NCBI GenBank assembly: GCA_965197805.1
Contig: OZ240229.1
Coordinates: 1,295,823 to 1,359,822, forward strand
DNA from: Dehalococcoidia bacterium
GTDB taxonomy: Bacteria > Chloroflexota > Dehalococcoidia > Lucifugimonadales > JAAXIE01
Length of the DNA stretch: 64,000 nucleotides
Direction: 5' to 3'
Below, in pieces: positions 4,635-25,352 of the stretch; position 1 is the first letter of the stretch, and the number at the start of each line of letters is the position of its first letter. A model generated the notes under the pieces. The model did not search any database and was not told the origin of the DNA. It worked only from the letters and a program-made list of their open reading frames with translations. Position numbers and translations under genes: made by a program.

Positions 4635-5303
4635 TCACACTGTAGAGTGGTGGCCTACGCGAGCCCACAGGTGGGTAAGGCGGAAGGGCGAGATAGGGTA
4701 ACCGCGGACCAAGTCGTGTTCATATTCTGCGGTTGTTTCACCGTCACGGTGCCTGATGTCTAAGGGTGGAACAGACTCCGTAACAGCGATGGAGTTAATT
4801 CTAGTCAGCGCGTCATCCAGAAGAACCTTCTGCAAGTAGCCCACCATTGCGCCGCTTTGCATCCCCTTTCCATAACTATGATCTTCGTCGATGAAGCGGG
4901 CGATACCCGATCTAACGTACTCGCGGGCATATCTGGTGGCAGGATCGGTCAGCCGTTTGCACTCAACCACGAATTGCTTACAGGCATCGTTTTCATCCTC
5001 CGCGAGGTTGTCGATATAGGGCCAATAAATGTCGGGTCTTTTGAACTCTCGTGGAGTTTGGTGTAGGTCTGATGGTGCCGGCAGGTTACGACCGTCAAGA
5101 ACAGCCGGAGGAATGTGCGCTATATGCTGCCCGGCTCGATGGGACACGCGAATTAGAGTTTTGTACAATTCACGGTTGAGGCTATTCTCATCCGCATCCA
5201 GATATTGGTCGCCAAGCAACATCAAAGCTTCGCGCAGCAACTCTACGCAGGTCCTCACGTGGTCGCTCCAAAGGTCGATGGATGAGAATACTGGGCGTGT
5301 CAT
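4635..5303 (-). CDS. Small PD-(D/E)xK-type nuclease-like protein, putative restriction partner of the upstream MTase
   Basis: 222-aa ORF. 'RPDIYWP' is followed about 20 residues later by 'VVECKRL' (D...ExK core). Its start overlaps the MTase stop (ATGA at 5300-5303). Confidence 0.55.
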   Translation of the reverse strand: MTRPVFSSIDLWSDHVRTCVELLREALMLLGDQYLDADENSLNRELYKTLIRVSHRAGQHIAHIPPAVLDGRNLPAPSDLHQTPREFKRPDIYWPYIDNLAEDENDACKQFVVECKRLTDPATRYAREYVRSGIARFIDEDHSYGKGMQSGAMVGYLQKVLLDDALTRINSIAVTESVPPLDIRHRDGETTAEYEHDLVRGYPISPFRLTHLWARVGHHSTV

Positions 5304-8300
5304 AGCCTTCTGGCAGACATCAGTTGCGCGGCTGTCGCGTCAGCATCTTGCCAAGCTGCACTAGCACTCCATAAACGTCGCTCGTCACGCTTTACGATTA
5401 TGATCGATGTGTCAGTCACAGCTCGCACTGTGCCGTAACGCAACATTGATTGCGCTTGGGTTCTGTTCCATTCCACTCCGAGCCGATTCAATGCCGACCA
5501 CCAACCCTCGTCTCCCTCCTTATTCGGGAAGGGGAATCTATTCCCTTCACCGCCGAGGGTTTCAAAAACTACTGCGACCACACCTTCCACCGGCTCACGC
5601 CATATCCTCCAACTAAGTTCTCCAATAGCACGAAGCCTTTGGTTCCAAGCTCTAAGGAACACAATCAAGTACGGGTCCAGCCCTTCTTTACTGTGGGGGT
5701 CCAGGTCAGCTTCGGTACCTCGCACCGCGGCGATGTGAGCAACCGATTGAGTTGCGTCTGTACTCTGACTTACCCAGAAATCGGCCACTAGGCTACGCTC
5801 TGAGTCTGTGAGTTCGAAAAGGTCAGCCACCGCTTCGTCAACATGAGCCATATGAGCGGCAATACCATGTCTTGCGACTTGGTCACCGAGCGTGTTCATG
5901 TCGCGCAAGTCACCGACGGCCGTCCGAATCTTGCGAGTGGTTACGTCCCAGACTGCCGGCATCCGTGTTGGAAGTTCGAGTAGGTCCCCTGAGCGTACCT
6001 CGTCTGCCCAGGTTCCCCATGATCCAGACACCATATATAACCAATAACGCCCCAAGGACGACACAAGGGTCCCAAGAATGATCTCAGCCTGCCATGGTTG
6101 CAGATGGGTGAGAGAAATCCCGTATGTCGTATGGCGAAATGCAAAGGGTTCTGTTTCAAGCCTGGCATGTGGTCCAAATCCAGGGGACACCCCCCTGCGT
6201 ATTAGCAAGCGTTGTCCCCTGAACAGACGCTCGTCCGGCACAAATTTAACGCGCGATGGGACAGATTCAAACCACTCATCCTTGAGGGCTCCCCAAGAGT
6301 CGAATTTAACGAGGCTCCTCAAGTCGCGCAGTGTCATCGACGGCGAATGTCCTGTTGAGTCGTCCCCTCTCTGAAAACCGTAACCACAAAGCTTCTTGGA
6401 CTCCGTCCAATCGCGCAATTGGTCTTCGACCGCAAGGCGGGCCAAAAAAGCGTCATCACGCGGAGATCCGGCAGTATACGTTTTCCACAAATAGTCACGG
6501 GTACGTAATGAGGTTTGCACCACCATTTGCCGGTCCATACGCGCAAGTGCGGATGACCCACGTCTTCCGCGAGGGACGGGGCGAGCCGTTTCGTAGACGA
6601 CCATCCCGCTTCTTTGGTCTAGTGCACGACGAAACCGGACCAACATAAACGGAGCGACCCCAGTCTTAAAGAAATCTCTCCGGACATGGCTGAAGTTGAC
6701 TACGTGTTCAAGTTTCGCCTCTCCAAGCCACTGTTCACGGAATCTGCGAGACGTGGGCCTAGTATTTAGCAGGGCTTTCGCACTTATTAAGAGGGCAGCC
6801 ACCCCACCGGTCGCCAAGAGGTCTAAGGCTCGCCATAAGAAGAGCTGCGACGGACTTCGGTCTCCAATGGTACGATTGAGCCGAGAAGCCCACTGCTCTG
6901 CCTTAGACTTACCGCCTTTAAGTTCACTCCATGGCGGATTCCCAACTACAACGCCAAAGCCCTCTGTCGTCCAAGGCAATCCGTCCTGTTGCCCGGTATA
7001 ATGTTCGTTGTTCGAGGTATGTTCTCCCTGCCTGGGCGAGAAGGCGTCACCCACGACAAGCGGTGCCATATTCCGTCCCTGTTCTCCGCGCTGGTGGATT
7101 AGCCTAGGAAGAGGCCCGGCTTTCAGTATATCGTTTGGCTGTTGGTAATTCAGAAACGCGATGTATAGGCTGAAGGCAGCTAGCCTAATCGCACCTTCGT
7201 CGATGTCGCACCCTGCAATACGCTGCAATAGTAACTCTTGGAGACGGCCCCTAGTTAGGGGTCGTTCCAGTTTCAACATCTCGTGCCTTACTATTCGACG
7301 ATACGCTTCGACGAGAAAAATCCCTGACCCACATGCAGGGTCGCAGACGGTGGGCTCTTGCTCAAGGGTGTTGTCATCAAGTACGTCAGCAATAACGGAC
7401 CCAACCAATTCAGGAGGGGTATAATAGGCATCAGCTAACTTTTTGGTCACCTCCTCATGATGGAACAGTTCGTACATATTGGAAACAAGATCGGTAGGAA
7501 CAACACTAAAGTCATACGCCCAAAGGAAGAGCCTTTCTTGGTTAGCACTTATGTCCCCTTTCAGTAGGCTCTGGAGGAGGCATAGTTGTTCCTCAGTGAC
7601 AGCTTCGCGTTCGTCATTTTCGGCGATGAATAGGTCGCGGTTGAAGTGCCCAGCGAGTTGGTCAAATAGGGCGTAAGTAAGTTCTTTGCTCGCCAAGAAT
7701 CGAATGAAGTTACTTGTCGGACCAAAGTCTACTGGAGCCTCATTGACACCGACTCGATTGAGTGGTTCCGGAAGCTTCGACGCTACTTCATCAAAGTATG
7801 CATCGGTGAGAATGGTTCGGTCTTCGAGGTAACGGACAAGAATGGCACGCTCAATAAGGGTATGAGAGAGCCTACGAGTTAACCCTGCCGATACAAGGGC
7901 TGTAGTAGCCGAGCGGACATCACGCAACAGCTGTTGGTCGGCCCGTCCGGTTTGATTACCCATTTGAGGATGTTCAAACGTCACGCCCGATTCTAGGCGA
8001 GACCTGTGGAAACGAGAGAGCTGTTCTGCAACATCCGCCGCTCTTGTCACGACCTCTAGAGGCGTCAAAGGCCTCCTACTAACGCCGGGCGTCGTCGGAA
8101 GACTCGCGAGCGAATAGACACGAAGCTCGTCTCCAACTGCCAAGAACAGATATCGAGGCCGGGCAAGACTCCATGCTCGACGGTAGCAGTGGAGCACATC
8201 GCGTTCATCCGATTCGGCTGGTAGAGACGTAAAGACGAGAACCGGATCATCGTTCAGAAAAAAGACTCTTTCCGCCTTGACACGTGCGGCGAGCAACAGC

Positions 8301-8449
8301 CAGTCACCTACTTCGCGCCATCTAGACCGGTTGGAGTCAAAGGACGGGGCTTCCGTGGCTTCAAGTAACATGCCGCTGACTAAGTCAAGGTCGGCGTACA
8401 CACGATCAAGGAGTGGAGATGGTGGATAGGTGGAGGGCATTCTAGTCAT
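5300..8449 (-). CDS. Large gamma-class N6-adenine DNA methyltransferase (type IIG / Eco57I-PglX-like) with unassigned N- and C-terminal regions
   Basis: 1049-aa ORF with motif X 'AYYTPPELV', motif I 'DPACGSGIFLVEAY' and motif IV 'VVVGNPPWSEL'. The upstream helical region has 'FNRDLF'. The ~480-aa C-terminus is TRD-like. Confidence 0.8.
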   Translation of the reverse strand: MTRMPSTYPPSPLLDRVYADLDLVSGMLLEATEAPSFDSNRSRWREVGDWLLLAARVKAERVFFLNDDPVLVFTSLPAESDERDVLHCYRRAWSLARPRYLFLAVGDELRVYSLASLPTTPGVSRRPLTPLEVVTRAADVAEQLSRFHRSRLESGVTFEHPQMGNQTGRADQQLLRDVRSATTALVSAGLTRRLSHTLIERAILVRYLEDRTILTDAYFDEVASKLPEPLNRVGVNEAPVDFGPTSNFIRFLASKELTYALFDQLAGHFNRDLFIAENDEREAVTEEQLCLLQSLLKGDISANQERLFLWAYDFSVVPTDLVSNMYELFHHEEVTKKLADAYYTPPELVGSVIADVLDDNTLEQEPTVCDPACGSGIFLVEAYRRIVRHEMLKLERPLTRGRLQELLLQRIAGCDIDEGAIRLAAFSLYIAFLNYQQPNDILKAGPLPRLIHQRGEQGRNMAPLVVGDAFSPRQGEHTSNNEHYTGQQDGLPWTTEGFGVVVGNPPWSELKGGKSKAEQWASRLNRTIGDRSPSQLFLWRALDLLATGGVAALLISAKALLNTRPTSRRFREQWLGEAKLEHVVNFSHVRRDFFKTGVAPFMLVRFRRALDQRSGMVVYETARPVPRGRRGSSALARMDRQMVVQTSLRTRDYLWKTYTAGSPRDDAFLARLAVEDQLRDWTESKKLCGYGFQRGDDSTGHSPSMTLRDLRSLVKFDSWGALKDEWFESVPSRVKFVPDERLFRGQRLLIRRGVSPGFGPHARLETEPFAFRHTTYGISLTHLQPWQAEIILGTLVSSLGRYWLYMVSGSWGTWADEVRSGDLLELPTRMPAVWDVTTRKIRTAVGDLRDMNTLGDQVARHGIAAHMAHVDEAVADLFELTDSERSLVADFWVSQSTDATQSVAHIAAVRGTEADLDPHSKEGLDPYLIVFLRAWNQRLRAIGELSWRIWREPVEGVVAVVFETLGGEGNRFPFPNKEGDEGWWSALNRLGVEWNRTQAQSMLRYGTVRAVTDTSIIIVKRDERRLWSASAAWQDADATAAQLMSARRL

Positions 8450-8782: not shown

Positions 8783-9034
8783 CTACGCTACCGCCCGGAC
8801 CATCCAGCGCATCATCGCGGATTGTCCCGCCTTCACCCGCATAAGCACTGTAGCTAGAAAGGCCAAGCAAGACATTTGGGCGTGGAGGGTGATTTGACGC
8901 AACCCTCGCAGGCGGTGTCGCTCCAACCGGCGCGATTCCTTCACCGATTTGAAGACCCTCTCAATGGTGGCCAGGCGTGGATACGGCCGCATTGGTGCGC
9001 CAGAGGCTCCACACGTGGTGTGCGTCGCCATCAC
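8783..9034 (-). pseudogene. C-terminal remnant of an IS4/IS5-type DDE transposase
   Basis: 'ATIERVFKSVKESRRLERHRLRGLRQITLHAQMSCLAFLATVL' is the typical end of the DDE_Tnp_1 domain. No intact upstream ORF; the surrounding frames are broken. Confidence 0.6.
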
Positions 9035-9698: not shown

Positions 9699-12600
9699 TC
9701 ACGTCGGTAGCACTACCTGATAGCAGACGACGCCAAGATCGTCTTCGGTGATGGGATCAGGAGCTCGTGGTGCCTCCACCGGCCGTAGGCCGAACCTCGC
9801 GACAACTTCGATGATGCGGCGGGAGCAGTCCGCCACAGTGATCCCGCCGCCTTCGTACTCCCGGCGGAGGTCCGACAACTCACGGCGCACGAGGTTGTTC
9901 CTGCCGGTGGACAGGGCCTGGTCTCCCTCGTCATATTCTTTACCAGTAGGAGCGTCCGGTAAGCGCAGCACGTCCAACGCCCAACGTTGACTAGCAGGCA
10001 GGGAGGCAAACCTTGTCTCGGGGTCGAGGAGCGCGTTGTGAGTCGTGCAGATGTCATCGGCGGCCACCGCAAAGAGGTGCTCAAGGTCAAGCCCCTCTGG
10101 GAGAGGGCATCCGGCCTGCTGTTGGGGGTCTATAAGCCGAACCATCGGCAAGTCTTCGCGGTACAGTATTTCCCCTGATTGGGACACAGTGCGCCAATAG
10201 CGCTCATCCCTGCGTGTCCGACAGGCGAAGAATACCGCAGGCTCCGCCAGTGTGGACGACCGTTGCACGAAAGCGGCCCCGATTCCCCAAGGCAGACCTT
10301 GGAGCCTGCTCACTTCACCTTCCTCGGCGGCGCGCCGGAGATGGGAGCGGAAAAGCTCACCCGCGAATGCCGAGCCCCCAACGCCCTCCTGTTCGTCCAA
10401 CAGCGCAGCATCCCCTTTGGAAAGACGTTCCACAAACGTGCTCAGGTCTGCGTAAACCTGCGACTCCATCTCTACGTCGGCCAATACAGGGGTCTCCATG
10501 CCCACTGAGGCGTTCGCAGCCATGATCTTGGACTGGAGCTTGGCTTCCAGCTTGAGCAGCCTGTCAAGGTCACCCTGTTTAGGGAGCAGGGTGTAGAGAT
10601 ATGCGGTGTCGTGGGGGCTGCGCAGGCGAATTATGCGACCATTACGCTGCACCACTCGCTGAGGGTTCCAAGGCATATCGAACGAGAGCACTGCTTGAGC
10701 CTGTTGTAGGTTCTGGCCCTCAGACAGTATGTCGGTGCTGATAATGACGTCCACTTCACCGCCATCTGGTCGAAATCCCGGCTCGTCCCGCACGGACTCT
10801 GGGCAGAACCGCTCAAGCTCTCTGGTGCGGGCGTCCGCACTGGTCTCCGAGCCGATGACCACCGTCCAATCACGGTTGTCCAGCACTTCCGGTTGCCTTT
10901 CGATTTGCTCTTTCAGATAAGTTGCTGTGTCCTGAAATGCCGTGAACACGGCGACCTTCTGAGACGGCGTTACGGCCATGACGTCCTTCAGCGTATCCAG
11001 CTTGGGGTCGGGGCTGTGCCTCAGGCTTTCCAACCGCGCCGACAGGGTAGCTAGGCTATCCCGGTCACTCTGCAAGTCAGACAAGAACTGGTCGTCGAAT
11101 CTGTTGGCGGGAATGCCTCCCTCCGAGCCAGCCAGTGCCTCGTCGATCAGGTCAGCGCTGAGGAACGTGTCGTCATCGGCATCGCCGACCAAGTCGCGGA
11201 TGACTTCCGGCGGGGGGACCACTCCCCGCTCTGTGATGACATGGAGCATCACGTCATTCGCATTTCTCATCCTGTTCACAGTTTGCAGAGCCGCGTACCA
11301 TGACGACTCGAAGCGTTTTAACAGCTGTGACTGCATCAGCCCGGCAAGCGCATCTTCTGAAGCGGATACGCCCTCATTGTCTAGCCTATAGGCAGATAAG
11401 CGGTACCTCGCCATTGTCAGACCGTCGACTCCATCGTAGATAAATTGCGCGATTCCAGGGTGTGCGCTGTCCAAGTCGTAGCGGCGCTCGTGCAACTCTG
11501 GCTCTGGGAACTTTACAGGCGTCCCGTCCACGAATCGCTCGTTACGGTACCGTTCCTTGACGAAGGCCCGGTCCCGTCGCACTGTCAGAGCGTCGATTAG
11601 GGGGAACAGCTTCGCCTCCGACAGATTCTCTGACTTCGACGCCCCGGCCTCAGCAAAGAGTGTCCGCAGACTGGTAATCTTCAGCGGCTCGCCGTTGAAG
11701 GCACTATCGTGCCTACCGAACAGGAGGAAGAGGTTATGCAGGTCCCAGAGGGAGTTGTTGACCGGAGTCGCAGTGAGGAGCAGTAGCTTCTTCGTAGTGC
11801 CTCCCATCAGCCGGTCCAGAGCTGCGTACCAGGTGTTGTTTATATTGCGGTAGGCGTGGGCCTCATCAATGATGACGAACCGGTACACGTCCTTGTTCAC
11901 CGGAAGCACCCGTCGCCCGCCGTTGGAAGCCAGTTGGCAGTCCTGCGCCAACTCCTGATAGGACACGACGGTTCCAGGCAGGTTTTCCTCGGCTAGGCGC
12001 TGCTCCCACAGGCGGTCCCGAAGCTGGGCCGGGGAGATTACCAGCACGTGCTGACCCAGGTCGCGGGTGTGCTCCCGGATCAACTGCACGCCGATCTCAG
12101 TCTTGCCCATGCCCACGCCGTCGGCATACAGGACGCCGCCGTAGCGGTCCAGAATCCGTTTTGCCCGCGCCAACCCATCTCGCTGGAAAGCGGTTAGGGC
12201 GTGTAGGTCAGGTATCGGCATTTCGTCATCCAGTTCGTCTCCATAGAGTTCCAGTAGTGCTCGTAAGAAGACGGTCTGAGGGTCGCTCTCCAAGGCAGGT
12301 GGTCGCAGCAGTTCCAACAGTTCTTCGCGGAAGTCCAGGGCATCGTCCCATAGGCGCCGGTGCCAGCCCAACGCCATGCCAACAACATTGGGTTGGTAGT
12401 GCACCATGCCCAGTTCGAGATTGGCGACGAGTCCACCTTGCGTGAGGTTGGCCGACGACACCAGGGCCGCCCCAGGTCCAATCGTAGATCCGCCGTCATT
12501 CAGTTGACCGATGACGTAAGCCTTGCCGTGGAGGAAACGTCGAATGTAACGACGTACTGCAACAGCGTCGGATTCAAAGAAGCGGGTCACCCGGTCCAAG

Positions 12601-12932
12601 ACAGCCCGCCGAAAGGCTGGAAAGGCAGAGAAGTCCCTCTCACGACGCAGAGCTGACACGGACTGGTCGAAACGGTCGGCCACGGTTTCCCCCGGCGAGC
12701 CAGCTAATCCCTCTGGCACCGCTCCGACCAACAGGCGAGTAGGTTGTTCCCTCCCCGCGGCTATCTTGGCTAGCGCGTCCAGCCCCTCAAGACCAATATA
12801 GCCTGTGGCCACATTCAGCGGCGCGGAGTAGTACTCTGCCAGCCATACCAACGCTTGGTGGTGGTTACCGTAGTCAACGTTGTCCACCAGTTCATAGGAG
12901 CCGTGTTGCGAGGCGTTGCTGCTGGCCGTCAT
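9699..12932 (-). CDS. PLD-family nuclease domain fused to an SNF2-family helicase/translocase
   Basis: 1077-aa ORF. PLD motif 'FLHGKAYVIG...LVSSANLTQGG' at aa 133-167. SNF2 motifs 'DGVGMGKT' (aa 271-278), 'IIDEAHAYRN' (aa 354-363), 'LLLTATPVNN' and 'FDMPWNPQRVVQRNGRIIRLRS'. The ~280-aa C-terminus is unassigned. Confidence 0.85.
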   Translation of the reverse strand: MTASSNASQHGSYELVDNVDYGNHHQALVWLAEYYSAPLNVATGYIGLEGLDALAKIAAGREQPTRLLVGAVPEGLAGSPGETVADRFDQSVSALRRERDFSAFPAFRRAVLDRVTRFFESDAVAVRRYIRRFLHGKAYVIGQLNDGGSTIGPGAALVSSANLTQGGLVANLELGMVHYQPNVVGMALGWHRRLWDDALDFREELLELLRPPALESDPQTVFLRALLELYGDELDDEMPIPDLHALTAFQRDGLARAKRILDRYGGVLYADGVGMGKTEIGVQLIREHTRDLGQHVLVISPAQLRDRLWEQRLAEENLPGTVVSYQELAQDCQLASNGGRRVLPVNKDVYRFVIIDEAHAYRNINNTWYAALDRLMGGTTKKLLLLTATPVNNSLWDLHNLFLLFGRHDSAFNGEPLKITSLRTLFAEAGASKSENLSEAKLFPLIDALTVRRDRAFVKERYRNERFVDGTPVKFPEPELHERRYDLDSAHPGIAQFIYDGVDGLTMARYRLSAYRLDNEGVSASEDALAGLMQSQLLKRFESSWYAALQTVNRMRNANDVMLHVITERGVVPPPEVIRDLVGDADDDTFLSADLIDEALAGSEGGIPANRFDDQFLSDLQSDRDSLATLSARLESLRHSPDPKLDTLKDVMAVTPSQKVAVFTAFQDTATYLKEQIERQPEVLDNRDWTVVIGSETSADARTRELERFCPESVRDEPGFRPDGGEVDVIISTDILSEGQNLQQAQAVLSFDMPWNPQRVVQRNGRIIRLRSPHDTAYLYTLLPKQGDLDRLLKLEAKLQSKIMAANASVGMETPVLADVEMESQVYADLSTFVERLSKGDAALLDEQEGVGGSAFAGELFRSHLRRAAEEGEVSRLQGLPWGIGAAFVQRSSTLAEPAVFFACRTRRDERYWRTVSQSGEILYREDLPMVRLIDPQQQAGCPLPEGLDLEHLFAVAADDICTTHNALLDPETRFASLPASQRWALDVLRLPDAPTGKEYDEGDQALSTGRNNLVRRELSDLRREYEGGGITVADCSRRIIEVVARFGLRPVEAPRAPDPITEDDLGVVCYQVVLPT

Positions 12933-12947
12933 ATCTCCCTCTTTACC

Positions 12948-15900
12948 TTAAAGGTCCTCGAACTTCTCCACCACCTGATTGCGGTAGGCCGGGCCAACGG
13001 CGTCCTCAGTGAAGTCTGTGAAGATGAAACGCAATTCATCCTCCGCAAGACCGTAGGCTCTCGCCACCAGCGCGTCTATCTCTGCTCGCATATCGTTGCG
13101 CTGGACGTCGGTCAGCGGGCCATATTCGACTTCGGCCCCAATTGAAAATTCGTAGAATCGTTCGTCGACGCAGGACAATCGCGCCGCAAGTCGGCCAATG
13201 CGGACCCATGGAGTGTTGTCGGGAGGGGGGAAGGTAAGCATATTCAGAATGAAATGGTTAAAGTTCATCTCGACGTATCTACGGGCTAACCAATCGAATG
13301 TGACTGAATTGATCACACCCAATACGGCTGCTTGTGGCAGTGCATTCCATCCACTGAATACCAGATAGGGAGCCGCATTCGTAAGAGGTGTTCGGGGAGG
13401 CACTATGCATGCATTCATGGTGCGCGAGTTCGTTCGGTTGGTGACGTGCCCATAAGCAATTCGGCAGTGGTTTATTGGATGAGTGTCAGGATTTGAGAGG
13501 AAAGTGGACGGGAATATGCTCTTGAAAACACGGGAACGCATTCGCTTATTGTGTACAAAGTCTAAAACCTCATCCCACACACAGTATCCAGCAGGTTCAT
13601 TGCCATGCGGATCGTACTGGTCAAATGAACGACCCTTCCATACTGCGACACCTTGAGAATGGGAGAACAGGGCGCGCTGCTGCGTCTCATGTAATTCCGC
13701 ATAGGGAACTAGATGAGACGCAGCAGCGCGCCCTGTTGCGGTCGTTGTACTTTGGGGATTCTGTAGACAGTCGAACTGAACTCCCCCCCGTATCTTCGTC
13801 AGCAGGTTAGAATGTATCTGGCTTGGTAGGAGAGGCACCACTTTGGCACTTCCCAAAGAGGATGCCGGGATACTAACGCCCTGACTACGGGTGACTTCTT
13901 GGAACTCTCTGAGGCTTGATGATGGCCCCGTGATTCGGAAGGTGGTTAACTCGTAAGGCGTGCTACGCTGGCCGGTCAGTAGCGCCACCGTATAACGAGG
14001 CTCCATATCGAACGCCCAGCGCTTTGCATTCAGCAGATAGTCCACCTTGCTCACTGTTGTCTGCCCAAATAGCCATTCCCTGAATCCCCTAGCTCCCTCC
14101 GCAAGGAACGCTGTTCTGGGTAGCACCACGCCCAGACGCCCTTCCTGCCTGACGAGGTGGCTGTACCGCTCGCAGAAAAGCTGATAAAGGTCTGTGTCGC
14201 CCACGCCTTGCAGCTGATATCCTCCACTATGGGAAAAGAACGCCCGGATGTTTGCTAGACGTACTTGCTCCGCTTCAAACTCCCCACGCCAGTTGGGGTT
14301 CTCTTCATCAAGTGCTGCAATACGTGCGCGCCTGTCCGTCAAATTGCTTATACCTCGCAGTCCGGGTTCCCGCAATAAGTAGAAGCGCAGTTCTTCGATG
14401 GTGACTTCGTTCCACGGGGGATTACCGACGACCACGTCGAACCCCGGGCGCTCACGGTGGAAGACGTTGGGAAACTCCAGTGGCCAGTGAAAGAATCGGT
14501 ACTGGGCAGCGGTGCCCGAGGCCTCGGCCATTACAGTTGCTATCTCAGTGGTCCTGCCGTCGTCACGCGCGACGATCGCGTCAGCATGGGTTTCCAGTGT
14601 GTGACGGGCACCTTCCAGACCTAGAGGTTCCGCCGCCCACAGGTCGAAGACGGACCGCAGACCTGCAGTGGCTCCGTGAAGGTCTGCGCCCATCTCCTCG
14701 GAGCGTTTCACCTCGTCGGGGGTTCGGTCTGGGTTCTCAGCCAGCGTACGCTGCAGATCGGCCGCACGCGTCATCGCATCAGCGACGGCCTGACCGGTGA
14801 ACATCGGGCTATCATTTGCGCCCACCACCAATGGGTCGGCCACTCCAATGAGGGCGTCGCCACACTTGAGATTGCTGCCCAGATAGGAGAGAGCTAGACC
14901 AGGGACGAAGGAAGCCAACCACAGAGTGACGTTTGCCACCTCCACTGCCATTGGTGAAAGGTCAACGCCGTAGATACAACGCTTGAGGATGAGCCGCCGA
15001 AGCAGTTCTCCGTCCTCAGGTGGCCGCGAGGCCAGCCCGTTTTCCTGGCTCAATTCGCTGAGTTGCTGGGCAATACTAGGTAGTCCGCCGACTTCCGCGA
15101 GGAAAATCCCCATTCGGTCAGCTATGATGCCCAAGGCAGCTGTTAAGAAGTGGGCACTACCCATTGCAGGGTCCACAATTGAAAAATCGAACAGCCTGCG
15201 GGTTGCTTCTTTGGGGTTTCGGACAGCCACATTCCTGATTTCTTCCAAGTGTTCATCAAGAGCGGGAAGTAGCGAATGGTTGAGGAGATGGTCTACGAAC
15301 TCACGCCTTGTGTAAAATACGCCCCCAGCTTTGCGTCCACCCGCCTCGGCTTGGTAGTAGAGCTGTGCTTTAGTCACCTCCGGCTGCTCCCCGGCGCGCG
15401 CAGGCCTAAACACGTCCTGCTTGGGATCGTAGGCTAAATCTTCGGGAGCGCGCGTAAGGCGCAGGGTCAACAACGCTTCGTAAATGGCTCCAAGGTGGCC
15501 AATCTGCAGGCCAGCATAGTCCAAGCCCGGAGCGTCAGGCTTGTCGGTTTCATAGGCGATGGCCATCAATGCCGGGACCAGATACACATCAGCGACCTCA
15601 GCCCGTTCCAGCAGATCGCTACCCGGGAAGCCGGCGGCAGCGAAAAGGCTGCCGTTGTAGGCTGGCACCGCGGCAGACCGGTCTCCCGTCCGCACCATCC
15701 GCACCAGCGTACGGAGCCGGTCCCATCGCTGTGTAGCTCTCCGGCTCAAAGACGACTGAGCCAGTCGGGAATCTTCGGCAAGCTGGAGGGCGCTATGTGG
15801 CTGGTATGCTGCCGATCCAATAGGCAAGTAACCGCGGGCTTCTGTGTGCAACAGGAACATGAAACGGAATACCAAGGTAAGTGCAGCCTCTTCTATCTGC

Positions 15901-16937
15901 CGGAGCTGCCCTCGGTCGCTTAAGTCAGCGCCCTGTGTTTCAAGCCACTCTCCAAGCCCTCGTGCTATGTTCGGCAGTGCATCCTGGATGAGCCTCTCTT
16001 CTAGACCCTTGCGTAGCTCCTCTCCGAAGTACTTAACCTCATTGACCCATGTAGTTAGCCACCCGTTCTCCTTCAGCGATTCCGGTGCGAGAAGGCCAAG
16101 GTAGAGGCGGTCTTTCCGCTCCAACTCACCCAGGTCTATCTCCACATGCTGCCCAGTCGCAGGTCCTACCGGGGGTCTCCGCTGAAATAAACGATATCGG
16201 CCTTCTGCAGCTAACACACCCCAATACGCTCCGTGTTGGGCAGAGTCTGCCAATACCATCCCCTCGGGCAGTTCGCCGTTGTCCGTGAGGCGACTGAACT
16301 GATTCGCGTCGCGGTGAAGGTGGAGTACGGCAACTGGAGTTTTTTCGTATCTCAGTAAGTAGCCGCGTTGGGGCAACTGCTCGACCTGGTAGCCCATGCC
16401 CTGGAAGAGAGCACGCCAGTCCATACCGGCAGTAGGTGTTATGCCTTCGATGGCACGGGACAGTCGCTGCTCGTTAATGGGCCAGCGTAGGCGGTCCCGC
16501 AAGAAATGAGGAGTAAGGAGGTCCTTGACCCGGAGGCCGGGGACCACTGCCTCCTCAAGACGGCTGAACTCCCGCGCCAAGAACGACGCGGCTTCACGGG
16601 TTGCCAAGCCTCGGCTCGTCTCCAACAGGCCAAGGACTCGATGGGCAGGCAGCTCGCGAACTGGGCGGGCATCCTGTGGCCCAGCGACGCGTACTTTAGC
16701 TTCCTGGTCTGAAGGAGCCAGCAAGACGACTGGATGGGGCTGACGGCCTTTCCTAGCTTCCCACAATCTGCGCAGATCAGCATCGCTCGCTGCGTGATCG
16801 GCCCACAGGAGGTGGTAGGACGACGTTTCCCAAGCTCTCGCTGAAGACCCCGCCTGAGACGTCCAGCTTCGGCCTTGGCCGTAAGCAGCTTCCAAGCGTG
16901 CAATCAACTGGCTGGTGCTAGGTGATTTCATAGCCAT
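12948..16937 (-). CDS. PglX / type IIG-like gamma-class N6-adenine DNA methyltransferase
   Basis: 1329-aa ORF with 'YNGSLF' (aa 427-432), 'RKAGGVFYTRREFV', motif I 'DPAMGSAHFL' (aa 589-598) and motif IV 'VVVGNPPWNEV'. 15-nt gap with a GAGGGAG SD before the helicase gene. Confidence 0.8.
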   Translation of the reverse strand: MAMKSPSTSQLIARLEAAYGQGRSWTSQAGSSARAWETSSYHLLWADHAASDADLRRLWEARKGRQPHPVVLLAPSDQEAKVRVAGPQDARPVRELPAHRVLGLLETSRGLATREAASFLAREFSRLEEAVVPGLRVKDLLTPHFLRDRLRWPINEQRLSRAIEGITPTAGMDWRALFQGMGYQVEQLPQRGYLLRYEKTPVAVLHLHRDANQFSRLTDNGELPEGMVLADSAQHGAYWGVLAAEGRYRLFQRRPPVGPATGQHVEIDLGELERKDRLYLGLLAPESLKENGWLTTWVNEVKYFGEELRKGLEERLIQDALPNIARGLGEWLETQGADLSDRGQLRQIEEAALTLVFRFMFLLHTEARGYLPIGSAAYQPHSALQLAEDSRLAQSSLSRRATQRWDRLRTLVRMVRTGDRSAAVPAYNGSLFAAAGFPGSDLLERAEVADVYLVPALMAIAYETDKPDAPGLDYAGLQIGHLGAIYEALLTLRLTRAPEDLAYDPKQDVFRPARAGEQPEVTKAQLYYQAEAGGRKAGGVFYTRREFVDHLLNHSLLPALDEHLEEIRNVAVRNPKEATRRLFDFSIVDPAMGSAHFLTAALGIIADRMGIFLAEVGGLPSIAQQLSELSQENGLASRPPEDGELLRRLILKRCIYGVDLSPMAVEVANVTLWLASFVPGLALSYLGSNLKCGDALIGVADPLVVGANDSPMFTGQAVADAMTRAADLQRTLAENPDRTPDEVKRSEEMGADLHGATAGLRSVFDLWAAEPLGLEGARHTLETHADAIVARDDGRTTEIATVMAEASGTAAQYRFFHWPLEFPNVFHRERPGFDVVVGNPPWNEVTIEELRFYLLREPGLRGISNLTDRRARIAALDEENPNWRGEFEAEQVRLANIRAFFSHSGGYQLQGVGDTDLYQLFCERYSHLVRQEGRLGVVLPRTAFLAEGARGFREWLFGQTTVSKVDYLLNAKRWAFDMEPRYTVALLTGQRSTPYELTTFRITGPSSSLREFQEVTRSQGVSIPASSLGSAKVVPLLPSQIHSNLLTKIRGGVQFDCLQNPQSTTTATGRAAASHLVPYAELHETQQRALFSHSQGVAVWKGRSFDQYDPHGNEPAGYCVWDEVLDFVHNKRMRSRVFKSIFPSTFLSNPDTHPINHCRIAYGHVTNRTNSRTMNACIVPPRTPLTNAAPYLVFSGWNALPQAAVLGVINSVTFDWLARRYVEMNFNHFILNMLTFPPPDNTPWVRIGRLAARLSCVDERFYEFSIGAEVEYGPLTDVQRNDMRAEIDALVARAYGLAEDELRFIFTDFTEDAVGPAYRNQVVEKFEDL

Positions 16938-17082
16938 CCACTACTTTATAGACATGCGACAATTTGCACGGGTGATCAGGACCTAGAGGAGAGGCAACAC
17001 AACGTAATGTTGCAAGCTGCCTCTCAATAAATTCCGGAGCCACGTAAACTGGCCAAGCGGGCTGCGCTTCCAGCTCCTTGCC

Positions 17083-17265
17083 TCAGCTCCCACGCCGGTA
17101 GCGGTATTCCTTGTCCCAGTTGGCGCTCTTGCACTTTGGGCAGACGCGTGGCCGTTCCTTGTTCAAACCTTTACTGGTCCACTCGTGTCCGCAACGGCAC
17201 CTGTAGGCCGTTACCTCGATCTTGAATGAACCTGGACGTTTGCCGTCGTCGTCTGCGGTCGCCAC
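17083..17265 (-). CDS. Small Zn-ribbon protein, first gene of the MTase-helicase operon (possible controller)
   Basis: 'CRCGHEW...CPKCKSANW' gives two Cys pairs. GTG at 17265 lies 6 nt after GGAGG (17276-17272) and downstream of the predicted minus-strand promoter. The track ORF extends to 17316, into the palindrome. Confidence 0.45.
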   Translation of the reverse strand: MATADDDGKRPGSFKIEVTAYRCRCGHEWTSKGLNKERPRVCPKCKSANWDKEYRYRRGS

Positions 17266-17287
17266 CTTTGACCTCCGGTGCAATTCA

Positions 17288-17344
17288 CTAATACTATAGA
17301 GTATTAGGGTTGACACTACAACCCGTAATACTCTATAGTATTAG
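17288..17344. promoter_or_regulatory. 25/26-bp inverted repeat containing back-to-back divergent promoters
   Basis: CTAATACTATAGAGTATTAGGGTTG (17288-17312) pairs with CAACCCGTAATACTCTATAGTATTAG (17319-17344). Plus strand: TTGACA (17310-17315), N18, TATAGT (17334-17339). Minus strand: TTGTAG (17321-17316), N17, TATAGT (17298-17293). Confidence 0.6.
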
Positions 17345-17370
17345 TATACTACTGAGCATAGGGTGATGCT

Positions 17371-18633
17371 ATGGTGGAAGCGGCCACCGAACTTGACCTC
17401 CACGGTTCCGACGATGGCCGTCGGCAGCGGGGCCTTGCGATTGCAGCCATCGCTCGCATCACCAAGACCAAGCTGGGCTACAAGGTCCCCTCTCAATCCG
17501 GCGAGGGTTCTTATGCGGTGAACCTCGCTGACGACGACCCCTACTGCAGTTGCCCAGACTTTGAGAAGCGACAGGTGTCTTGCAAGCATATCTACGCAGT
17601 ACGGTACTTCATCCAGCGCGAGGGGCAACAATCTAGCGCTGTGGTGCACTCTCAGAGCCTCCGGCCGACCTATCGGCAAGACTGGCCCGCATATAATGCG
17701 GCACAGGCCCACGAGGGTGAGCACTTCCATACTCTCCTTCGGGAACTCTGCGACACTGTGCCACAGCCCCTACAGGCAGGTAAAGGACGCCCACGGCTGC
17801 CTTTGGCCGATGTGGTATTCGGCATCGGCCTCAAGGTCTACTCAACGTTCTCCGGGCGTCGTGCCATGTCGAACATCCGCACTGCTGAGGCAAACGGTCT
17901 CCTAGATCACGCGCCCTCATTCACCAGCGTGTTCCGATACTTGGAGAATCCTGCCCTGACGCCTGTGCTCAAGTCCTTGATTCAGCAGAGCTCCCTGGCC
18001 CTCACGTCCGTCGAGACCGAATTTGCCGTGGACTCCAGCGGGTTCGCCACCACGACCTATCACCGATGGTTTGACCACAAGTGGGGCAAGGAGATCAAGG
18101 AGGCGGAGTTCGTTAAGGCGCATCTGATCTGCGGAGTTACTACCAACATCGTGACGGCTGCCGAGGCTTCTGTAACTCGAGACAACGATGCTCCTTACCT
18201 GGCCCCGTTCGTGCAGACCACTGCGCAACACTTCATCGTCAATGAAGTCTCCGCCGACAAGGCCTATCTGACGAAACGGAACCTACACGCGGTCCAAGAG
18301 GTAGGAGGTACTGCCTACATCCCATTTAAGTCCAATTCCGTCGCTAGTAACCCCAAGGTGAAGCGGGACCCTCTTTGGACCAAGATGTATCACTACTATC
18401 ATCTCAACCGGGCTGAGTTCTTACAGCACTACCACAAAAGGTCCAACGTGGAAACGACGTTCTCCATGGTCAAAGCGAAGTTTGGCTCCGCAGTCCGTGC
18501 CAAGACTCCGGTCGCACAGATCAACGAGGTCTTGACAAAGGTTCTGTGTCACAATGTCTGCGTGGTTATACAGTCCGCCTACGAGCTGGGGATTAACCCG
18601 GTGTTCTCTCCAACAATGCCCGAGTCGGCCTAG
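17371..18633 (+). CDS. SWIM zinc-finger + DDE (IS4/IS5-type) transposase, paralogue A
   Basis: 420-aa ORF. SWIM motif 'CSCPDFEKRQVSCKHIYAV'. DDE candidates 'FAVDSSGF', 'VSADKAYL' and 'YHKRSNVETTFSMVKAKFG'. Confidence 0.8.
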   Translation: MVEAATELDLHGSDDGRRQRGLAIAAIARITKTKLGYKVPSQSGEGSYAVNLADDDPYCSCPDFEKRQVSCKHIYAVRYFIQREGQQSSAVVHSQSLRPTYRQDWPAYNAAQAHEGEHFHTLLRELCDTVPQPLQAGKGRPRLPLADVVFGIGLKVYSTFSGRRAMSNIRTAEANGLLDHAPSFTSVFRYLENPALTPVLKSLIQQSSLALTSVETEFAVDSSGFATTTYHRWFDHKWGKEIKEAEFVKAHLICGVTTNIVTAAEASVTRDNDAPYLAPFVQTTAQHFIVNEVSADKAYLTKRNLHAVQEVGGTAYIPFKSNSVASNPKVKRDPLWTKMYHYYHLNRAEFLQHYHKRSNVETTFSMVKAKFGSAVRAKTPVAQINEVLTKVLCHNVCVVIQSAYELGINPVFSPTMPESA

Positions 18634-18968
18634 GACCGGGTACCCCTTTGCGCCCTGCGCCTCGAAGGCCACAGATGCCTTATGGTCCCCGACTTCCATA
18701 CCTTCTCGCTCCCACGGGCAGCACATGCATCCTTAAGCAGCTTATCTCCGTCGCTTTGTGACCCTGCACGTTCCGCTGCCTCTGGATCCGGCCAAGTCTC
18801 TAGGTCTGCGACATTCGGTAGCAACCAGCGTGGCAACCGCAATCTATTGTGTCTTCAGACAATCAGGTGCACGTCCCATAAATCCCCCGAAAGTATAGAC
18901 CATCACGGTTGGCACAACGACACGCTACACCGTTAGAGTATGAGGATGTTCCTTAAGTTGGGAGCCGA

Positions 18969-20279
18969 TTGATGCTCGAAGTGGTCACGGCCCTAAGCCC
19001 CGACGATCCCGACGACGGTGACACTGGCCGCCAATCGCGGGGCCTTGCCATCGCAGCCATAGCTCAGATCAGCAAGAACAAGCTGGGATACAAAGTGCCG
19101 TCACAATCTGGCAACGGCACTTACGTCGTAAATGTCTCCGATGAAGACCCGTATTGTAGTTGTCCAGATTTCGAGAAGCGACTAGCTAGATGCAAACACG
19201 TCTATGCCGTGGAGTTCCTGATACAGCGTGAGGAACGGATAGACGGTACAGTCATGGACACTAGAGCTGTCCGCGTTACTTACGGACAAGACTGGCCCGC
19301 CTACAATGCCGCGCAGGCCCACGAGGCCGAGCACTTCGTGACACTACTGCGTGACCTTTGTGACGCGGTGGTGATACAGCCAACGCAGCAGGGCAAGGGC
19401 AGACCGCGCCTGCCCTTGGGTGACGTGGTACTCGGTATTGCTCTGAAGGTCTATTCCACGTTCCCGGGGCGCCGCGCGATGTCGAATATCCGTACTGCCA
19501 AGGCCAACGGGTTGATGGATCATGTGCCCTCGTTTACTAGCGTGGCCCGTTACATTGAGAACCCTGCCCTTACTCCGGTCCTAAAATCCCTGATTGAACA
19601 GAGTGCCCTACCGCTCTCATCAGTGGAAGTCGATTTTGCCGTGGACTCCAGTGCGTTTTCCACCACCACGTATCAGCGATGGTATGACCACAAATGGGGC
19701 AAGACGATTAAGGAGTCCCAATGGGTGAAGGCCCACCTTATTGCTGGGGTCAAGACCAACATCGTGACCTCCGCAGAGGCGACTGTCACCCAAGCCCACG
19801 ATAGTCAGTACTGGCCAGCATTCGTGGAGACCACGGCGCAAAACTTCAAACTAAACGAGGTTTCCGGGGACAAGGCCTACCTAAGTCGAAAGAACCTGTG
19901 GGTGGTGCAAGCGCTCGGCGGAACAGCCTACATCCCCTTCAAGACCAACTCCGTGGCCCACAACTCCAAGGCAGCGGGGGATCACCTTTGGCTCAGGATG
20001 TTCCACTACTACAATTACAACCGAGAGGAGTTTCTGCAGCACTACCATAAACGATCAAACGTTGAGGCTACGTTTCACATGATCAAGGCAAAGTTTGGCG
20101 CACGAGTACGGTCCAAGACTCCGACGGCCCAGGTCAATGAAGTGCTGACCAAGATTCTATGCCATAATATCTGCGTCTTGATTCAGTCGGTCTACGAACT
20201 GGGAATCACTCCGGTTTTCAGCCCACCAAAAATTTTTGGAACAGAAGGGCCAGCTGTTCCAAAAATGGCGTGGGAATAG
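18969..20279 (+). CDS. SWIM zinc-finger + DDE transposase, paralogue B
   Basis: 436-aa ORF (TTG at 18969, ATG at 18972). 'CSCPDFEKRLARCKHVYAV', 'FAVDSSAF', 'VSGDKAYL' and 'YHKRSNVEATFHMIKAKFG'. The 3' end runs into the right-end repeats. Confidence 0.8.
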   Translation: MMLEVVTALSPDDPDDGDTGRQSRGLAIAAIAQISKNKLGYKVPSQSGNGTYVVNVSDEDPYCSCPDFEKRLARCKHVYAVEFLIQREERIDGTVMDTRAVRVTYGQDWPAYNAAQAHEAEHFVTLLRDLCDAVVIQPTQQGKGRPRLPLGDVVLGIALKVYSTFPGRRAMSNIRTAKANGLMDHVPSFTSVARYIENPALTPVLKSLIEQSALPLSSVEVDFAVDSSAFSTTTYQRWYDHKWGKTIKESQWVKAHLIAGVKTNIVTSAEATVTQAHDSQYWPAFVETTAQNFKLNEVSGDKAYLSRKNLWVVQALGGTAYIPFKTNSVAHNSKAAGDHLWLRMFHYYNYNREEFLQHYHKRSNVEATFHMIKAKFGARVRSKTPTAQVNEVLTKILCHNICVLIQSVYELGITPVFSPPKIFGTEGPAVPKMAWE

Positions 20280-23585: not shown

Positions 23586-25352
23586 TTGGTAAGCCCAGAC
23601 GAAAGGGGAGCGATGCCAGGTACGCCACAAGAACAGATACACGAAATCGCAATCAGGGACTATAGTGGCCGAGAGGAAGACGCCTTCCCTTACTGGGCTT
23701 TGTCTTGCATACTGGCCGATCAACAACCGGAACGCAATGACCTTCGCGACCATGTCGCAGTAGGGGATGGTGATCTGGGAATAGACGGTTACTGGATCGA
23801 TGAATTCAACAGACGGCTCATCTTGCTACAGGCGAAATACTCTGCGAGAACGAGGCGAGATGAGGCGACGGCGTTTCGGTCAGACATTGAGGCCTTGATA
23901 GACCCGGAATATGTCCATGCACATGCTAACGAAGTCATACGAGAGATATACCCCGAGCTTCTGGAAGCTCTCATCGATGATAGCTATACTATACAGGCAG
24001 TGCTGGCATGTGGCGGACAGGTAGCTCCAACTGCACGCTCGTATGCAAGGACCACAAGCTCACAAAATTGGCAATTCCAGATTGGCGACGACAACCACAC
24101 CAAAGAGATACAGCTTCAAATCTTGGACCTTACCGAGCTTAGCTCCCTTCGTGACGACCTTCTCAGAGACCTTATAGAACCCTACCTAGAATTGCCTGTA
24201 ACGATCGTGGACAACAACCCTAGCTTCCACTATATGGGCGGGGATTTCCCTGCTGTGCAGGCCACGGTCCCTGCCCGCATATTGATCGACGCTTACGACC
24301 AGTATCGCTCTGCTATATTCAGATACAATCCACGAGGACCCCTGGGGTCCAACAAAGTTAATAAGGAGATTCAGCACACTCTCGAGGACACTACTCTTAA
24401 GCGACATTTCCACCTTCTAAACAATGGTCTCACGTCGATGGCCAATGGTATAACCTACAATCAACGCAGTAGCGTCCTCGAGGTAACGGACTTCCAGATT
24501 GTTAATGGTTGTCAAACTGTGTTCACGCTCTACAGATTAAGAGACCATGTTACTGATGACGTGAAAGTCACAGTGAGAGTAGTTGAAGGGTTACACGGAC
24601 CTTGGGCAAACGAAATCTCTAAAGCAAGCAACTATCAAACTGCAGTCCGGCCTGAGCAACTAGCGTCGCTAGGAGCAGAACACGATGAAATACAGCATAA
24701 GTTCGACCGTTTGGTACCACCATGGTTTTACGAAAAACAAAAGGGGTATGTACAATTCCTAAATGCCGCCGGGAAACGATCACATCGACAGCGCTATGGA
24801 GGCCGCAATCTATCCGCATCTGAGGTTGGCCAATACGGCGTCGCATTCCTGGCACAGCCGGTGCTTGCTAAGTACGACCTGCAGCGACTCTTCGAACGGA
24901 AGGATAACGACGGAGAACGGCTATATCGCCTGATCTTTGTCGAGAGCAATGAGGCATCACAACTCGCTCTTCCCGTGATCGTCGGAAGACGAATAGAGCA
25001 AGCCGTCAAGCAGCGTCTCGCTGCCCTAAAGCCTGTGGATGACCAGGAACCCGAGAGGTTCTCAGAGCGCAATTGGTTGCCCTACGCTCGCATGCATATG
25101 ACAGCATTAATTGGTGAGCAGCTTAGACTGGCTAATGTACCGAAAGGCGAAATCCTGGACGCATCTGTCTGTAGTGAACGGTGGGCTTCCATTGATGATT
25201 GGTTCGATGGCTTATTTGCAAAGGCTCGCAGCGCGGTAGCGCTAATCATTGGAGTGGAGAAACGAGCAGATAAGCTCCACAACCTCAGGGAATTTTTCCG
25301 AAATACAGACCGCTACACCGAGATGGTCACCGAGACAAGGGATAATCCTTAG
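23586..25352 (+). CDS. AIPR (abortive infection phage resistance) family protein
   Basis: 588-aa ORF. The N-terminal nuclease-like region has 'GDGDLGIDGYWID...LILLQAKYS'. The C-terminal AIPR signature is 'FQIVNGCQTVFTL'. TTG at 23586, ATG at 23613. Confidence 0.8.
   Translation: MVSPDERGAMPGTPQEQIHEIAIRDYSGREEDAFPYWALSCILADQQPERNDLRDHVAVGDGDLGIDGYWIDEFNRRLILLQAKYSARTRRDEATAFRSDIEALIDPEYVHAHANEVIREIYPELLEALIDDSYTIQAVLACGGQVAPTARSYARTTSSQNWQFQIGDDNHTKEIQLQILDLTELSSLRDDLLRDLIEPYLELPVTIVDNNPSFHYMGGDFPAVQATVPARILIDAYDQYRSAIFRYNPRGPLGSNKVNKEIQHTLEDTTLKRHFHLLNNGLTSMANGITYNQRSSVLEVTDFQIVNGCQTVFTLYRLRDHVTDDVKVTVRVVEGLHGPWANEISKASNYQTAVRPEQLASLGAEHDEIQHKFDRLVPPWFYEKQKGYVQFLNAAGKRSHRQRYGGRNLSASEVGQYGVAFLAQPVLAKYDLQRLFERKDNDGERLYRLIFVESNEASQLALPVIVGRRIEQAVKQRLAALKPVDDQEPERFSERNWLPYARMHMTALIGEQLRLANVPKGEILDASVCSERWASIDDWFDGLFAKARSAVALIIGVEKRADKLHNLREFFRNTDRYTEMVTETRDNP

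Follow-up and report, generated by a model that had tools for sequence, protein, structure and literature searches.

The window analyzed here, a stretch of 64,000 nt from the genome of a Dehalococcoidia bacterium (GCA_965197805.1, contig OZ240229.1), contains two adjacent minus-strand genes that probably form a self-contained two-component ATP-dependent defense module of the restriction–modification (R-M) type. The first gene (12948–16937) encodes a methylase of 1329 aa, and the second one (9699–12932) encodes a protein of 1077 aa with an HKD(PLD) nuclease domain fused to a SNF2 motor (PLD-SNF2); the RefSeq labels of the pair are "hypothetical protein" and "helicase-related protein". This reading is based on the gene pair itself, its co-inheritance, the invariant catalytic residues, the mosaic C-terminal half of the methylase, and the defense-island context. 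The most unusual feature of the locus, absent from the initial annotation of this DNA, is a flipping quasi-palindrome inside the methylase gene, which raises the interest of an otherwise moderately interesting operon.

Layout, Distribution, and Co-Inheritance of the Gene Pair

The conserved unit consists of two genes on one strand: a gene for a methylase of ~1330 aa followed by a gene for an HKD(PLD)::SNF2 protein of ~1080 aa. In the window, they are separated by 15 nt (GGTAAAGAGGGAGAT) with a Shine–Dalgarno-like GAGGGAG run inside. Both large open reading frames (ORFs), the 15 nt gap with its GAGGGAG site, and the protein motifs quoted below had been reported in the initial annotation, and all of them were recovered from the sequence and its translations. 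Coordinates of the features are listed in Table 1.

A scan of one genome per species yielded 43 loci with close relatives of PLD-SNF2 (55–86% identity). Their hosts were mostly Dehalococcoidia and other Chloroflexota metagenome-assembled genomes (MAGs) and further included, by label, Entotheonella, Binatia, Acidimicrobiales, Gemmatimonadota, Caldilineaceae, and Anaerolineales. In 39 of the 43 loci, a gene for a methylase homolog preceded that of PLD-SNF2 on the same strand; among the remaining ones, one had the methylase gene inverted ~6 kb away, and one was cut by the contig end. The identities of the methylase and of PLD-SNF2 to their window counterparts co-varied with an r value of 0.97 (39 loci). 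A second copy of both proteins was found in the same genome on a 3,682,742 bp contig (P0013 and P0169, 86% and 75% identity).

When 1.84 billion cluster representatives were searched exhaustively, PLD-SNF2 had matches at E ≤ 1e-30 in 1221 of them (50% identity clusters), and the full PLD, SNF2, and tail architecture was kept at about 29–30% identity among the matches listed. The contigs of five distant representatives were looked up. Four of them (L058, L060, L064, and L063; 40, 33, 32, and 30% identity, respectively) encoded an Eco57I-type methylase of 1322–1350 aa immediately upstream, with the genes overlapping or abutting (L058, 10001–10013; L063, 4245–4255; L064, gap of 2 nt). In the fifth one (L061, 29% identity), the order was swapped, with the methylase gene downstream of PLD-SNF2. 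A translated search of plasmids additionally revealed the pair on pHLAC01 of the archaeon Halorubrum lacusprofundi ATCC 49239 (181113–188671) and on pCRE138 of Rhodococcus erythropolis R138 (72267–79714); experiments are thus practical in culturable hosts.

Near-identical pairs (65–86% identity) were present in MAGs of at least five phyla (Chloroflexota, Entotheonella, Binatia, Actinomycetota, and Gemmatimonadota), which suggests that the pair has recently spread horizontally among the members of a single community type. Among the cluster members, many ORFs were truncated, even on long contigs. The distant SNF2 matches from the genome scan (L045–L057) were set aside because they had no PLD domain and a different association: in L045–L056 (e.g., L047, 9833–18928), a PLD-less SNF2 gene occurred in conserved operons with genes of an N6_N4 (type III-like) methylase and a ResIII/SWI2_SNF2 helicase, neighbors being checked in only some of the loci L045–L057.

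Domain Composition of PLD-SNF2

The translation of the downstream gene contained the motifs HGKAYVIG...SSANLTQGG (H135/K137/N162), GVGMGKT, DEAH, TATPVNN, and QRNGRIIR. Pfam searches identified SNF2-rel_dom and Helicase_C, with a sub-threshold PLDc_2 match at residues 58–195. The best PADLOC family was "HKD+Snf2" C3a139 (3.5e-43), a cluster of candidate type III CRISPR accessory genes (PMC6546367); DrmD followed with about 1e-23, and HmaA was matched by the Helicase_C part only (2.6e-21). The NCBIfam DrmD model scored 103.6 bits against its cut-off of 610, and a DrmC profile matched at 5e-4. All NCBIfam matches of both proteins were far below their own cut-offs. The earlier domain calls for both large proteins agree with the Pfam and PADLOC results.

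In an alignment of 39 sequences of 24–87% identity, the residues H135, K137, S160, N162, T164, G167, and E173 of the HKD site were invariant. The same was true for G274, G276, and K277 (Walker A), D356 and E357, and T389-P390 of the SNF2 motor, as well as for Q762, R763, G765, R766, and R769 of its motif VI. No invariant residues occurred after G811. Judged from the alignments, all catalytic motifs of the PLD, SNF2, and methylase parts are under purifying selection, down to 24% identity.

The single HKD motif per chain is relevant to the mode of action of the nuclease. Nuc and BfiI are single-HKD nucleases in which two chains make one active site. By analogy with them, PLD-SNF2 would have to dimerize, because with one motif per chain, a PLD dimer is needed for one active site.

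The AlphaFold2 model, computed with the alignment of 24–87% identity sequences, had a predicted local distance difference test score (pLDDT) of 85.4 and a predicted template modeling score (pTM) of 0.79; a model based on a shallower alignment (75–87% identity) had a pLDDT of 55.7 and was discarded. From residue 860 on, the pLDDT of the C-terminal tail was mostly 80–97, with strands at 884–924 and 1066–1076. RapA ranked first for PLD-SNF2 in Foldseek and profile searches, and the Foldseek alignments to RapA exceeded 1000 columns. SauUSI (7clg) matched residues 119–283, i.e., the PLD-to-helicase junction, at 4.8e-13, and was the nearest solved structure for this junction. The tail of the BREX-related (BR) helicases has been described as "inactive REase + alpha/beta", a non-catalytic RapA-like part (PMC12839542), and the tail of PLD-SNF2 fits this description.

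Domain Composition of the Methylase

The upstream gene product contained the motifs YNGSLF, GGVFYTRREFV, DPAMGSAHFL, and VVVGNPPWNEV. It matched Eco57I in Pfam (9e-20) and, in PADLOC, REase_MTase_IIG over its full length (residues 48–1312, 1e-105) and DrmMI (6e-66), while its score with PglX models was 33.5 against a cut-off of 500. The DrmMI and Eco57I matches span the catalytic core, in which the motif order X-I-IV is of the Eco57I type. Residues Y542, T543, D589, G593, S594, F597, and N839-P840-P841-W842 of the core were invariant in the alignment of homologs.

The N-terminal domain was far more variable: only R62, A203, P224, L242, R249, E266, G292, and R315 were invariant among homologs of 24–69% identity, and no conserved D...(D/E)xK was present in that alignment. 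One distant homolog had a weak MmeI_N match (E = 0.037) on an "ILTNGxxWRLY" strand. The domain is probably a restriction-endonuclease-like fold devoid of catalytic residues. Because this nuclease-like domain appears to be catalytically dead, the methylase would be unable to restrict alone.

Residues 845–1240 had the lowest identity and the highest entropy along the methylase. No correlation was seen between their identity to the window protein and the corresponding identity of the N-terminal part (r values of −0.17 and −0.01), and the former was bimodal, 0.46 versus 0.7–0.8. This pattern is the signature of swapped recognition modules. The methylase paralog of the same genome also diverges most in the C-terminal half. 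This half is a putative target-recognition region, where specificity may be swapped.

These data bear on the question of whether the two genes are independent systems travelling together, the methylase being a complete type IIG enzyme and PLD-SNF2 a stand-alone SauUSI-like (type IV) or backup effector. PADLOC placed the whole methylase in the type IIG REase-MTase family, the MmeI_N match of the distant homolog points in the same direction, the PLD domain plus the helicase start align to SauUSI, and defense genes also cluster for reasons besides shared function. We nevertheless regard independence as quite unlikely. The N-terminal domain of the methylase has no conserved D...(D/E)xK triad, and a modification-dependent nuclease beside a methylase would be self-toxic. 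Moreover, the two genes are adjacent on a shared strand, coupled or overlapping, and they co-diversify (r = 0.97); these features hold at 24–87% identity and in different domains of life.

Proposed Mechanism

A module made of the two proteins would follow the Mod/Res logic of type III and type ISP systems and of the DrmMI/DrmD part of DISARM. The methylase would recognize a specific site via its own C-terminal target-recognition region and mark the host DNA, thus methylating self-DNA. The downstream PLD-SNF2 protein would supply restriction. At unmethylated sites, the methylase most probably recruits or licenses the motor-nuclease, and the two proteins would be physically coupled. The SNF2 motor would then translocate on double-stranded DNA; when two motors meet, the single-HKD PLD domains would pair and cut the DNA, as in Nuc, BfiI, and SauUSI, so that cleavage would depend on translocation and on dimerization of the nuclease.

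Provided that the pair restricts alone, it would be a minimal form of the DISARM/BR coupling of a PglX-like methylase to a SNF2 motor, and the licensing of a translocating PLD nuclease by a methylase could be studied in a simple system. A defense type that is common but so far unannotated would be added as well, as counted by the 1221 PLD-SNF2 clusters mentioned above.

Several points weigh against such a module. The PLDc_2 match reached 22.9 bits, with a Pfam cut-off of 27, although the HKD residues are invariant. The presumed catalytically dead state of the methylase N-terminus is deduced from an alignment. Two close loci (L026 and L028) have the helicase gene with no methylase gene within 10 kb, and one of these helicases is N-terminally truncated. 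Other genes are located between the methylase and helicase genes in about 60% of close loci, which means that the pair may not always act alone. Our literature search found no experimental evidence of methylation, restriction, or interaction of the two proteins. Finally, DISARM does not always need its PLD protein, and for this reason, a PLD domain is no guarantee that DNA cleavage is the mode of defense.

Another reading is that the pair is a methylation-guided exclusion or regulatory module working without DNA cleavage. Its motor would act on unmodified DNA in a BREX- or RapA-like manner, displacing replication or transcription complexes or blocking them, with the PLD domain being accessory or acting on something besides invader DNA. 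No DNA degradation is detectable in BREX defense, RapA proteins are the nearest relatives of the motor with solved structures, and the methylase is PglX/DrmMI-like. At the same time, the family-wide invariance of the HKD residues argues for a working phosphodiesterase, and neither PglZ nor BrxC was found in neighborhood scans. We consider a non-cleaving module unlikely and prefer the R-M-type reading with cleavage.

Flipping Quasi-Palindrome Inside the Methylase Gene

The methylase gene contains a quasi-palindrome with perfect arms, which encodes TGRAAASHLVPYAELHETQQRALF. The same site was found in L001–L043 (e.g., at 9204–9275 in L006 and L007), and perfect arms of 19–33 bp, mostly 22–27 bp, were present at this site in 36 of 42 orthologous loci. 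Of the 51 perfect inverted repeats of at least 16 bp in 1.27 Mb of sequence, about 37 were at this site. The palindrome was not present in relatives at 35% identity or less. A metagenome scan for it returned one contig, equal in length to that of L027.

The arm sequences vary among loci yet remain complementary, with compensatory changes in 17 of 25 arm pairs. In these 25 pairs, 98.6% of arm cells were paired and G-U was almost nil, a result reached by none of 500 shuffles. The single-stranded DNA fold of the quasi-palindrome had an energy of −37.7 kcal/mol (z value of −10.85).

The 22 bp spacer occurs in both orientations, and both are in frame and stop-free. The flip recodes LAPYTELH to AIPYRELD and back, giving either H-LAPYTEL-H or H-AIPYREL-D with P-Y-x-E-L common to both. 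Among 106 cluster representatives, 60 were in one state and 46 in the other. The state was unrelated to overall similarity: about half of the pairs differed in every identity bin from 60 to 90%, and both orientations occurred within nine of ten clusters at 90% identity. Loci L006 and L007 were 99.6% identical over 17.4 kb, and their methylase genes differed by an exact inversion and two single-base changes. The second methylase copy in the genome of the window was also in the opposite palindrome state (D, not H). The palindrome site adjoined gene breaks in L003 (a 1.2 kb insertion) and L031 (a frameshift).

An assembly artefact is unlikely to be behind the two orientations, since both states were found in complete-chromosome as well as short-read assemblies. 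An RNA hairpin or intragenic terminator would agree with the TTTT ends of many right arms; it is less likely because the compensatory changes are almost all from one Watson–Crick pair to another. Such covariation with almost no G-U indicates pairing at the DNA level. As for the mechanism of the flip, the spacer is far too short for ordinary invertase synapsis, and neighborhood clustering of the close loci revealed no recombinase gene conserved near the pair; an invertase is therefore less likely than template switching or a hairpin. DNA-level homogenization, e.g., by quasi-palindrome replication template switching or by a hairpin-mediated process, more likely accounts for the flip.

A recoding intragenic inverton is a segment between inverted repeats inside an ORF that occurs in two orientations and yields two protein versions (Chanin et al., bioRxiv 10.1101/2023.03.11.532203). 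By orientation and frame, as observed in assembled genomes, the quasi-palindrome fits this definition: it has inverted repeats within an ORF, and both orientations are in frame and occur in near-identical genomes. It differs in that the segment is of only 22 bp, the arms are perfect over 25 bp, and the feature is family-wide across several phyla. It is a family-wide, very short in-frame inversion giving two protein versions: either an R-M system is regulated here by a switch of a new type, or a natural palindrome-driven template-switch mutation has shaped a coding sequence.

A further-reaching reading, which we hold to be possible though rather doubtful, is that the pair belongs to an unnamed widespread two-component R-M class whose specificity subunit is switched by recombinase-independent high-frequency micro-inversion, toggling a conserved methylase motif and, with it, activity, specificity, or coupling to the nuclease. 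If this is true, defense systems would have a type of phase variation that is new.

Neighborhood Census and Comparison with Known Systems

When the ORFs of 44 loci were clustered, the methylase and helicase families were the only universal ones. The large neighbors of the pair were almost all singletons. Among the 62 neighbors of at least 520 aa, PADLOC and Pfam revealed no recurring DrmA, DrmB/DUF1998, PglZ, BrxC, or DUF499, and the commonest families had only 3–5 members. DUF499 and DUF3780 were found neither among the recurring families of the neighborhood scans nor among the Pfam labels of the distant loci. DrmA/DrmB, PglZ, and BrxC were absent from the called genes of L001 and L058–L064 and from the two plasmid loci. 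They were also missing from the top-25 PADLOC and Pfam family lists of all other window ORFs of at least 200 aa, in agreement with the initial annotation, which had found no DrmA, DrmB, PglZ, or BrxC in the window. It had also raised the prospect that orthologous loci regularly adjoin such genes, as would befit a decayed fragment, and no such recurrence was seen.

The best named relatives in PADLOC and NCBIfam were DrmMI, DrmD, and DrmC, and the locus is flanked by transposase genes and an insertion sequence (IS) remnant, which might suggest that the pair is what is left of class 1 DISARM or a DUF499-centered BR/Hma system after decay. This is very improbable and already largely refuted by the census: the same two-gene layout without DrmA/DrmB (DUF1998), DUF499, DUF3780, PglZ, and BrxC occurs in 39 close and 8 distant loci, both ORFs are intact, and the catalytic residues are invariant.

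Class 1 DISARM shares with the pair a SNF2 helicase, a large N6-adenine methylase, and a PLD nuclease, and Drm proteins are its best named profile relatives. However, the pair has no DrmA helicase and no DrmB (DUF1998), and its PLD domain is fused to SNF2 instead of forming a separate DrmC. PglZ and BrxC, required in BREX (types 1–6), were missing from the neighborhoods and the window lists. ARMADA contains a YprA helicase.

The type III and type ISP systems likewise combine a specificity/methylase part with an SF2 ATPase-nuclease part; the methylase-first order resembles mod-res, and cleavage would be expected to need translocation and the meeting of two enzymes, here as there. Type III systems differ in having a beta-class Mod (N6_N4_Mtase) and a Res with a C-terminal PD-(D/E)xK, whereas the pair has an Eco57I-type gamma-class methylase and an N-terminal PLD domain. 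Type ISP enzymes are single chains with a Mrr-like nuclease, whereas here, the PLD domain is at the N-terminus of a separate SNF2-family motor. A type IIG enzyme joins an active endonuclease domain, a gamma-class methylase, and a target-recognition domain in one chain. The methylase of the pair has a variable C-terminal half and matches the PADLOC type IIG family over its full length, and its N-terminal domain lacks a conserved D...(D/E)xK. SauUSI (type IV) has a PLD nuclease coupled to an SF2 ATPase in the same N-terminal PLD-to-helicase order, but it is a solitary enzyme dependent on modified DNA. In the ATP-dependent type II systems CglI and NgoAVII, a PLD-family nuclease and an SF2 ATPase are in two proteins, and the methylase is of the C5 type.

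The same effector architecture is found in Type-2 BR systems (Hma-like; Rakesh & Krishnan, NAR 2026), with an effector of N-terminal HKD and Swi2/Snf2 parts together with an N6-methylase, predicted to be R-M-like (PMC12839542). The HKD endonuclease, the Swi2/Snf2 helicase, the RapA-like tail, and the N6-adenine methylase are all common to both. BR systems are defined by the DUF499 AAA+ ATPase and type 2 also by DUF3780, found in 98% of taxa (PMC12839542), whereas neither recurs near the pair; the methylase also differs, being here a DrmMI/type-IIG-like protein of ~1330 aa.

Profile libraries did not assign the gene pair to a named system, and our search of the literature library available to us found no paper naming or testing it. 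These comparisons support the initial description of a self-contained methylase plus translocase-nuclease system outside the canonical type I/II/III, BREX, and DISARM layouts. To call it undescribed was too strong: besides the Type-2 BR effector and PADLOC C3a139, a table of Milman et al. (2023) lists type II R-M genes with an adjacent PLD+SNF gene, left unanalyzed (PMC9881135). Since the effector architecture and the adjacency are already on record, the pair is not categorically new.

Inserted Cassettes and Defense Island

The two core genes were directly adjacent in 17 loci, and a variable cassette was located between them in the others. These cassettes encoded DUF5131 and TcmP (about 10 loci), a Uma2 nuclease (about 6), PIN (4), a trypsin-like protease (2), and unknown proteins (e.g., L011, 8127–9984; L024, 9389–9976; L002, 9601–9975; L035, 2969–3682). 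Other defense genes are likewise inserted within Hma operons (PMC11232893). The slot between the genes may be an insertion hotspot or a site of auxiliary effectors, as reported for hmaABC. Flanking genes of related loci encoded AbiEi/AbiEii, CBASS-type SMODS with patatin, GmrSD, and a TIR protein.

McrBC, a second R-M-like pair, an AIPR gene, and an N6_N4 methylase gene are located within the same 26 kb of the window (Table 1), which makes it a defense island. The second pair comprises a type-IIG/PglX-like methylase of 1049 aa (VVVGNPPWSE) and, with a 4 nt overlap, a 222 aa protein with a PD...ECK motif, for which no Pfam, PADLOC, or NCBIfam match was found. The same pair recurs in L006 and L007 (1979–5616).

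Table 1. Coordinates of the gene pair, its predicted domains, and further features in the window.
Feature	Position	Strand	Description or basis
Predicted methyltransferase/specificity subunit, 1329 aa	12948..16937	-	Gamma-class N6-adenine, DrmMI/type-IIG-like; ORF, Pfam/PADLOC, synteny
Methylase N-terminal domain, about residues 1–340	15918..16937	-	Alignment, weak MmeI_N match
Methylase catalytic core, about residues 530–860	14358..15350	-	Motif X FYT, motif I DPAMGSAHF, motif IV NPPW
Mosaic C-terminal half, putative target-recognition region, about residues 845–1240	13218..14405	-	Identity/entropy profile
Intragenic quasi-palindrome (micro-inverton), residues 1068–1091	13666..13737	.	Perfect 25 bp inverted repeats, 22 bp spacer
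Intergenic junction	12933..12947	-	15 nt, GAGGGAG ribosome-binding site; sequence read
Predicted restriction/motor subunit PLD-SNF2, 1077 aa	9699..12932	-	HKD(PLD) nuclease, SNF2 ATPase, RapA-like C-terminal part; ORF, profiles, AlphaFold2
PLD/HKD nuclease domain, about residues 13–200	12333..12896	-	Single HKD motif; invariant residues, PLDc_2
SNF2 motor, about residues 245–800	10533..12200	-	Invariant motifs, SNF2-rel_dom, Helicase_C
PLD-SNF2 C-terminal tail, about residues 800–1077	9699..10532	-	Folded alpha/beta, no catalytic signature
McrB-like AAA_5 and McrC	37-2662		Defense genes
Second R-M-like pair	4635-8449	-	Methylase with PD-ExK partner
IS remnant	8789-8983		
Two transposase genes	17371-20279		
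AIPR/AbiU-like gene	23586-25352		Low-GC patch
Further methylase	25327-26307		N6_N4 type

Small Zn-Ribbon ORF and Transposase Genes

The initial annotation had placed three genes in the operon. The two large ones stood; the third, a small Zn-ribbon gene, was rejected as a member. Its ORF exists as claimed, running from a GTG start at 17265 (GGAGG upstream) to 17083 and encoding a CxC...CxxC Zn-ribbon-like peptide of 60 aa. However, no homolog of it was found near the pair in related loci, and no Zn-ribbon-like small ORF occurred upstream of the methylase gene in 34 evaluable loci. The sole homolog, at L026, had no methylase gene nearby; its neighbor was a fragment from the SWIM+DDE transposase family that also adjoins the ORF in the window. 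Missing from related pairs and paired with a transposase both in the window and in L026, the Zn-ribbon gene belongs with the insertion sequence, and it may encode a small regulator of the IS element. In the window, this ORF and the transposase gene diverge around a palindrome with 23 nt arms (17287–17345), which carries a near-consensus promoter (TTGACA-18-TATAGT) facing the transposase gene.

Two tandem transposase genes of the SWIM-zinc-finger + DDE_Tnp_1 type were found upstream of the operon (17371–18633 and 18969–20279), with 72% amino acid identity between their products. The 1.25 kb gap downstream of the operon contained a 65 aa C-terminal remnant of another DDE transposase (8789–8983).

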